This document shows, one piece after another, positions 25,801 to 26,190 of a DNA stretch of 64,000 nucleotides. Location: assembly GCA_021537435.1 (NCBI GenBank), contig GCA_021537435.1_3050.1; one strand, 5' to 3'. This DNA comes from a phage. The notes beneath the pieces are model-generated. The model saw only the letters and a program-made list of their open reading frames with translations. It was not told the DNA's origin and did not search any database. A program made the position numbers and the translations under genes. Numbering within the stretch: position 1 is the stretch's first letter; each line of letters starts with the position of its first letter.

Positions 25801-26190
25801 TTAATTCAACAAAGCGATGCCTATTCAACATTTGTCCGTGATGTTTATGTCCGTTCTGATATTCGTGTTAAAAAAGACCTTGTTAAATTTGAAAATGCTT
25901 CTGAGAAGCTTTCTAAAATTAACGGTTACACTTATATGCAGAAGCGAGGCTTAGATGAAGAAGGCAATCAGAAATGGGAACCTAACGCCGGTTTGATAGC
26001 TCAAGAAGTTCAAGCTATTTTGCCTGAATTAGTTGAAGGTGACCCTGATGGCGAAGCTTTACTTCGTTTGAACTATAACGGTGTAATTGGTTTAAATACA
26101 GCTGCAATCAATGAGCATACTGCAGAAATTGCAGAACTTAAATCAGAAATCGAAGAACTTAAAGCATTAATTAAATCATTGTTAAAATAA
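22885..26190 (+). CDS. 37: long tail fibre distal subunit gp37 (1101 aa) with C-terminal intramolecular chaperone domain
   Basis: N-terminus [36 protein letters not shown]...; C-terminal ...[10 protein letters not shown]... coiled-coil domain. Confidence 0.85.

Follow-up and report, generated by a model that had tools for sequence, protein, structure and literature searches.

Gene 37 and the domain at its C-terminus

The window analysed here is a whole stretch of 64,000 nucleotides of phage DNA (GenBank assembly GCA_021537435.1, contig GCA_021537435.1_3050.1), which carries the long tail fibre locus of a T-even phage. Gene 37 of this locus (22885–26190, + strand) is an open reading frame (ORF) encoding the precursor of the long tail fibre distal subunit, gp37, with 1101 amino acids (aa) and a mass of 118.9 kDa. 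PHROG 1699, ‘long tail fiber protein distal subunit’, covers gp37 residues 1–1100 with 1323 bits. The last 111 residues of the protein (S991–K1101) start with SDIRVKKDL and are followed by the stop codon TAA at 26188–26190. The codon of Ser991, TCT, starts at position 25855, and Arg990 precedes this serine. An earlier reading of this DNA from its letters alone (the sequence-only reading) had let a self-cleaving chaperone domain begin at this base, and its start coordinate and the motif it quoted were both exact. Between 25400 and 27200, no other ORF of at least 60 aa overlapping the tail was found on either strand, no Rfam match was found at E<=1, and sigma-70-like sites were no commoner than in shuffled sequence.

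We found that gp37 S991–K1101 is an intramolecular chaperone domain of the endosialidase/Peptidase_S74 type. The Pfam profile Peptidase_S74 (PF13884, ‘Chaperone of endosialidase’), which has a curated cut-off of 22 bits, matched residues 991–1050 of the full protein with 48.5 bits, and the 111-aa tail alone reached 54.4 bits (E 1.6e-14). A search of this kind had been proposed as a check along with the domain itself, and its outcome lies above the cut-off. Profile positions 1–57 of 58 were matched, with position 1 falling on Ser991, and the domain lies at the extreme C-terminus of gp37, from residue 991 up to the stop. The likeness to an S-D-x-R-x-K autocleavage site, also seen by the sequence-only reading, is borne out by Ser991 and Lys996 in SDIRVK and by the start of the profile match at Ser991.

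From alignment, the scissile bond is predicted to be Arg990/Ser991 (25852–25857, + strand), with Ser991 (codon 25855–25857) as the predicted nucleophile. Lys996 (25870–25872, + strand), five residues after the serine, is the predicted general base of a Ser-Lys pair, as judged from sequence, conservation and its equivalence to Lys1269 of phage T5. Alignment to the cleavage sites of S16 and T5 gives a predicted mature gp37 of residues 1–990 (22885–25854, + strand; 106.6 kDa), which ends in FVRDVYVR. The chaperone domain (residues 991–1101, 25855–26187, + strand; 12.3 kDa) is predicted to be released.

The last 196 residues of gp37 were also compared with PDB sequences using phmmer, and the match was the S16 ‘long tail fiber distal subunit’ (6F45_A; E 7.6e-44). 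The aligned part begins at residue 5 of the 196 residues searched, about 80 residues before Ser991, and spans the tip, the cleavage motif (DLNVS SDRRIKKD in S16) and the whole tail to its last residue. By this homology, positions 25612–25854 (+ strand) encode the distal tip of mature gp37, corresponding to the S16 gp37 tip with its gp38 docking surface. MyRF was also a weak sequence match to the gp37 C-terminus (E 0.044). We considered whether this match was noise and rejected that, since the fold searches described next show true remote homology within one domain family.

The structure of residues 971–1101 was modelled with AlphaFold2 as a monomer from a 20-sequence alignment. The mean predicted local distance difference test (pLDDT) value was 79, with values of about 89–98 across most of the tail. 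Low values were confined to the first 20 modelled residues, a segment of the trimeric tip that is unable to fold as a monomer. In order, the model contains a short helix, a beta-hairpin, a short helix, two short strands and one long helix (residues 1064–1100), and so shows the predicted short helix, beta-hairpin and long C-terminal helix that characterize the Peptidase_S74 fold. The long helix (26074–26184, + strand) has pLDDT values of about 93–98, and DSSP assigns helix to model residues 94–130. In its best heptad register, I,I,I,I,I occupy one core position and N,H,L,L,L the other. Together with the coiled coil of the T5 chaperone, this pattern suggests that the helix may form a trimeric coiled coil, although it was modelled as a monomer only. 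The sequence-only reading had also described coiled-coil-like sequence after the motif. The helix and heptads at 1064–1100 agree with this, but they do not follow the motif directly, as an alpha/beta domain of about 70 residues lies between.

Foldseek against the PDB returned two significant targets only, the MyRF ICA domain (7dc3; E 2.5e-6, template modelling (TM) score 0.6) and the endosialidase chaperone (3gw6; probability 0.99). Overall, the sole strong PDB neighbours of the model in the fold search are four solved intramolecular chaperone domains, those of MyRF, T5 pb1, endosialidase and GA-1. The absence of any detectable similarity to chaperone domains would have spoken against the sequence-only reading; such similarity was found by Pfam, by 6F45 and by the fold search alike. 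6F45 itself, the top sequence match through the tail, was not among the Foldseek matches to PDB coordinates, in keeping with a crystallised S16 complex that lacks the tail. That the resemblance is due to chance or composition, as in a generic coiled coil, and that the tail is just the end of the fibre shaft, we regard as a practically negligible possibility: the E-values (1.6e-14 for Pfam, 7.6e-44 for S16) argue against it, the match includes the non-helical alpha/beta part and not the helix alone, and the top fold-search matches are all chaperone domains.

The known domains of this family differ from the gp37 tail in several respects. The chaperones of endosialidase K1F (3GW6), T5 pb1 (4UW8) and the GA-1 neck appendage (3GUD) have 13–20% sequence identity to it, and the endosialidase and T5 domains bear large extra insertions, such as the ‘tentacle’ hairpins of T5. 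In those proteins the mature fibre or spike itself binds the receptor, whereas here cleavage would make room for a separate adhesin. MyRF ICA (7DC3) comes from a membrane-bound transcription factor of eukaryotes whose cleavage frees the DNA-binding domain, and its functional context is unrelated.

Conservation of the predicted cleavage site

Related tails were found in 1402 records of the phage collection (tblastn with the last 131 gp37 residues). Eight of these records are at least 99% identical to the query, and vB_EcoM_FB is 100% identical. The hosts of the phages with related tails range from Escherichia and Salmonella through Vibrio, Synechococcus and Pelagibacter.

We also fetched 80 related viral loci in a scan of IMG/VR. 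The motif S-D-x-x-x-K was in register in 79 of the 80, 90–112 residues ahead of the stop, and the Ser-Lys pair (S-x4-K; S991/K996 here) was kept in the same number of loci. D-V-x-[IV]-R usually precedes the motif. The exception (L010, IMGVR_UViG_2974741249_000001, 155 kb) has its tail match at about 1501–1894, in a frame differing from that of the upstream fibre gene, and contains no in-frame S-x4-K motif. A frameshift or a mistake in assembly is the probable cause.

A protein homologue search with the 111-aa tail gave 22 proteins, mostly short or fragmentary, and hence a shallow alignment. R-S-D-x-R-x-K was present in every site-spanning homologue of this protein alignment (A1). Among the homologues was a 65-aa ‘tail fiber protein’ of vB_EcoM_005 (P0016). 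Three others (P0001–P0003) are entries of 170 aa named ‘tail fiber domain-containing protein [Escherichia coli]’ that begin at an internal gp37 Met. It seems that these entries come from T-even phage genomes submitted under the name E. coli, in which just a C-terminal fragment of gene 37 was annotated.

The adhesin gp38 and the predicted processing of gp37

Gene 38 (26225–27004, + strand) encodes a T2/S16-type tail fibre adhesin of 259 aa, identified by Pfam and preceded by the Shine-Dalgarno sequence GGAGG at 26215–26219. gp38 matches Gp38_N (PF21721), the full-length attachment domain, at residues 1–40 (9.1e-21), and GP38 (PF05268), the glycine-rich adhesin, at residues 45–259 (4.1e-72). It is 50% identical to T2 gp38, and W7, W20 and W35 are invariant between both. 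A TTG start at 26213 was rejected in favour of the ATG at 26225, because Gp38_N aligns from that Met and GGAGG precedes it.

The sequence-only reading had assigned the fibre to the T2/S16 type. This assignment holds, as the downstream adhesin has Gp38_N, GP38 and the three tryptophans, and the gp37 tip is homologous to that of S16. S16 (PDB 6F45; Dunne et al. 2018) has the same gene order and the same architecture of tip, chaperone and gp38 as the window. Its tail of 112–113 aa compares with 111 aa here, both have an extended C-terminal helix, and identity to an S16-like sequence is about 50% across the last 196 gp37 residues. Two differences are that the gp37 tip here carries an insertion of about 11 residues, and that the host of S16 is Salmonella whereas that of the phage in the window is E. 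coli.

T2 belongs to the same genus and has the same locus. Its gp37 served as a positive control: the protein has 1341 aa, with Peptidase_S74 at 1243–1300 and a 99-aa tail at its C-terminus, and its site reads NVYIR^SDIRLK against the predicted DVYVR^SDIRVK here. The T2 tail is without the long terminal helix extension, and identity to the window over the last 196 residues is about 33%. By length, terminal helix and identity (about 50% vs about 33%), the tail of the window resembles the S16 type more than the T2 type.

T4 gp37, the negative control, has Collar and fibre-repeat (Phage_fiber) domains but no Peptidase_S74, and binds the receptor itself. Only its N-terminal part of about 680 residues is homologous to gp37 of the window (34% identity, ending near residue 677). 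T4 gp38, a weak match to Caudo_TAP, is unrelated to gp38 of the window; it acts as an assembly chaperone and is not present in the virion. gp37 and gp38 of the window match none of Collar, Phage_fiber and Caudo_TAP, in line with the earlier exclusion of the T4 type. The domain identity, its position, the conserved catalytic residues, the predicted fold, the type of gp38 and the T4 and T2 controls all come from the present analysis.

For S16, a later paper states that the last 113 residues of gp37 are autocleaved after trimerisation at DLNVS^SDRRIKK, exposing the gp38 docking surface, and that an equivalent cleavage is predicted in Yersinia T4-like phages at DVYIR^SDGRLKI (PMC7917993). According to another, the N-terminal tryptophans of S16 gp38 dock on the gp37 tip face created by cleavage (PMC6851490). 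T2 and T6 gp37 are likewise reported as cleaved. These accounts bear on whether the domain could be present and yet stay attached in the virion, lengthening the fibre as a coiled coil, with gp38 binding elsewhere or serving as an assembly factor only. We judge retention to be highly improbable. Cleavage in this phage is read from relatives, and few tails in the set are longer than its own (111 aa vs 90–106 aa in most relatives), both of which speak for retention. However, neither Ser991 nor Lys996 has been lost, both being conserved, and the S16 tail, at 112–113 aa, is reported as cleaved, as is T2/T6 gp37. Moreover, gp38 has the full attachment domain and the tryptophans whose S16 counterparts dock on the cleavage-created face, and it needs the gp37 end that the tail covers.

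The chemistry of cleavage is best described for T5 pb1. Cutting of its Thr1263-Ser1264 bond depends on Ser1264, activated by Lys1269, and since an arginine is contributed by the neighbouring chain, cleavage requires a correctly folded trimer. A Ser-to-Ala change blocks cleavage, the recombinant protein is cut in E. coli without other phage proteins, and the chaperone forms a central trimeric coiled coil (PMC4690869). Self-cleavage is also published for the endosialidase (K1F) chaperone, with a role of Ser as in T5 (PMC4690869).

Alternatively, the C-terminus might be removed not by the domain itself but by another protease, of phage or host origin. Drexler, Riede and Henning reportedly described C-terminal processing of T2 gp37 in 1986, and the title of this original T2 work, as cited, speaks of ‘proteolytic processing’ and leaves the protease unnamed, which would fit such an enzyme. 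Recombinant proteins of the domain family nevertheless cleave themselves in E. coli, the single Ser-to-Ala change blocks this in T5 pb1, and the same Ser/Lys pair is present in gp37. Removal by a separate protease is thus very unlikely.

We are highly confident that the tail drives trimerisation of gp37, cleaves itself off at R990/S991 and exposes the docking face for gp38. The tail domain would align three nascent gp37 chains in register, the C-terminal helices forming a trimeric coiled coil while the alpha/beta part packs beneath the fibre tip. The chaperone would nucleate folding of the trimeric beta-helical tip, starting from the C-terminal end. After correct folding of the tip, Ser991, activated by Lys996, would attack the Arg990-Ser991 bond in each chain. 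Release of the 12.3-kDa domain would leave the 106.6-kDa mature gp37 (residues 1–990, ending DVYVR), whose exposed flat end would be the dock for the three-helix, three-tryptophan N-terminal domain of one gp38. The docked gp38 would then carry out receptor recognition. The trimerisation role, the self-cleavage, the exact bond and the docking of gp38 after release are all drawn by analogy from S16, T2, T5 and K1F endosialidase.

Several points weigh against this sequence of events. Processing of gp37 in this phage is deduced from data on relatives, and the scissile bond is placed by alignment. The serine is preceded by Arg here and in most relatives, whereas S16 has Ser in that place. The S16 evidence is second-hand, as it comes through citing papers. 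Finally, the model is that of a monomer, built from a shallow alignment of 20 sequences, which leaves both the coiled-coil trimer and the Ser-Lys geometry as predictions.

The fibre locus and a possible adhesin module

The remaining genes of the locus are gene 34 (17161–21033), gene 35 (21042–22157), encoding the hinge connector gp35, gene 36 (22220–22876) and the holin gene t (27035–27691). The gene order 34-35-36-37-38-t is that of the annotated T4 and T2 loci. gp37 residues 447–547 (window 24223–24525) match Gp34_trimer (PF21446, E 8e-08), a domain also present in T4 gp37 and T2 gp37; the proximal and distal half-fibres would therefore have one module in common. Residues 58–123 of gp35 match the Pfam family ILEI (PF15711, ‘Interleukin-like EMT inducer’; E 4.7e-08, 33.9 bits vs a cut-off of 27), an unexpected domain label for a tail fibre hinge protein.

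The T4 late-promoter consensus TATAAATA was found exactly at 17119–17126, about 35 bp upstream of gene 34, and at 22189–22196, about 25 bp upstream of gene 36. Late promoters before these two genes are as expected for late transcription of fibre genes. Across the window, the consensus was not enriched (5 found vs 9.9 expected). No T4 late promoter was found within the gp37 tail region. Since the consensus lies upstream of gene 36 and is missing from the tail, genes 36–38 are probably co-transcribed.

Three stop codons in a row, all in frame, close gene 37 (TAATAATAA, 26188–26196). They are followed by an intergenic hairpin, GAGGGGC-UUCG-GCCCCUU (26197–26214, + strand), with a GC-rich stem of 7 bp and a UUCG tetraloop (RNA fold -16.7 kcal/mol, z -2.2), which adjoins the gp38 Shine-Dalgarno sequence GGAGG (26215–26219). 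This hairpin is terminator-like on the minus strand only, and a terminator role on the + strand was rejected because the + strand has no T run. Judged from its sequence, it is probably an element of RNA stability or translation coupling.

Genes 37 and 38 have 96.5% nucleotide identity to Escherichia phage UFV-AREG1 and about 91% to AR1. The best matches of the first 25 kb of the window are vB_EcoM_G10400 and pSe_SNUABM_01 (about 95%). No near-identity match over the whole of 1–27004 was found in the phage collection. The tail fibre locus is thus a mosaic, as the best matches differ between the first 25 kb, g37-g38 and the gp37 C-terminus.

The feature described here is already known, as it is the standard T2/S16-type distal fibre, established structurally for S16 and biochemically for T2. 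The S16 authors themselves call the T2/S16 type the commoner form among T-even phages (PMC6851490). For annotation, the virion form of gp37 is to be taken as residues 1–990. Constructs for fibre expression, or for gp38 swaps in host-range retargeting, must include the 111 tail residues, since folding requires them although the final product lacks them. Host specificity of this phage would reside in gp38 rather than in gp37.

The gene downstream of the fibre gene was also examined in the IMG/VR loci (L002–L081), a sample biased toward this tail subfamily. Many of these downstream genes lie on non-T4-like contigs of 30–110 kb, and they match the N-terminal part only. The literature anticipates a wider distribution only partly, through RB43 gp38 and a comment on conserved tryptophans made in the S16 work. 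The many downstream genes on non-T4-like contigs suggest that the self-cleaving chaperone tail and a tryptophan-pronged cap protein may form a portable two-gene module well beyond the T-even phages, an idea for which we see about even chances. Cleavage would then be a general licensing step for the loading of exchangeable adhesin heads.
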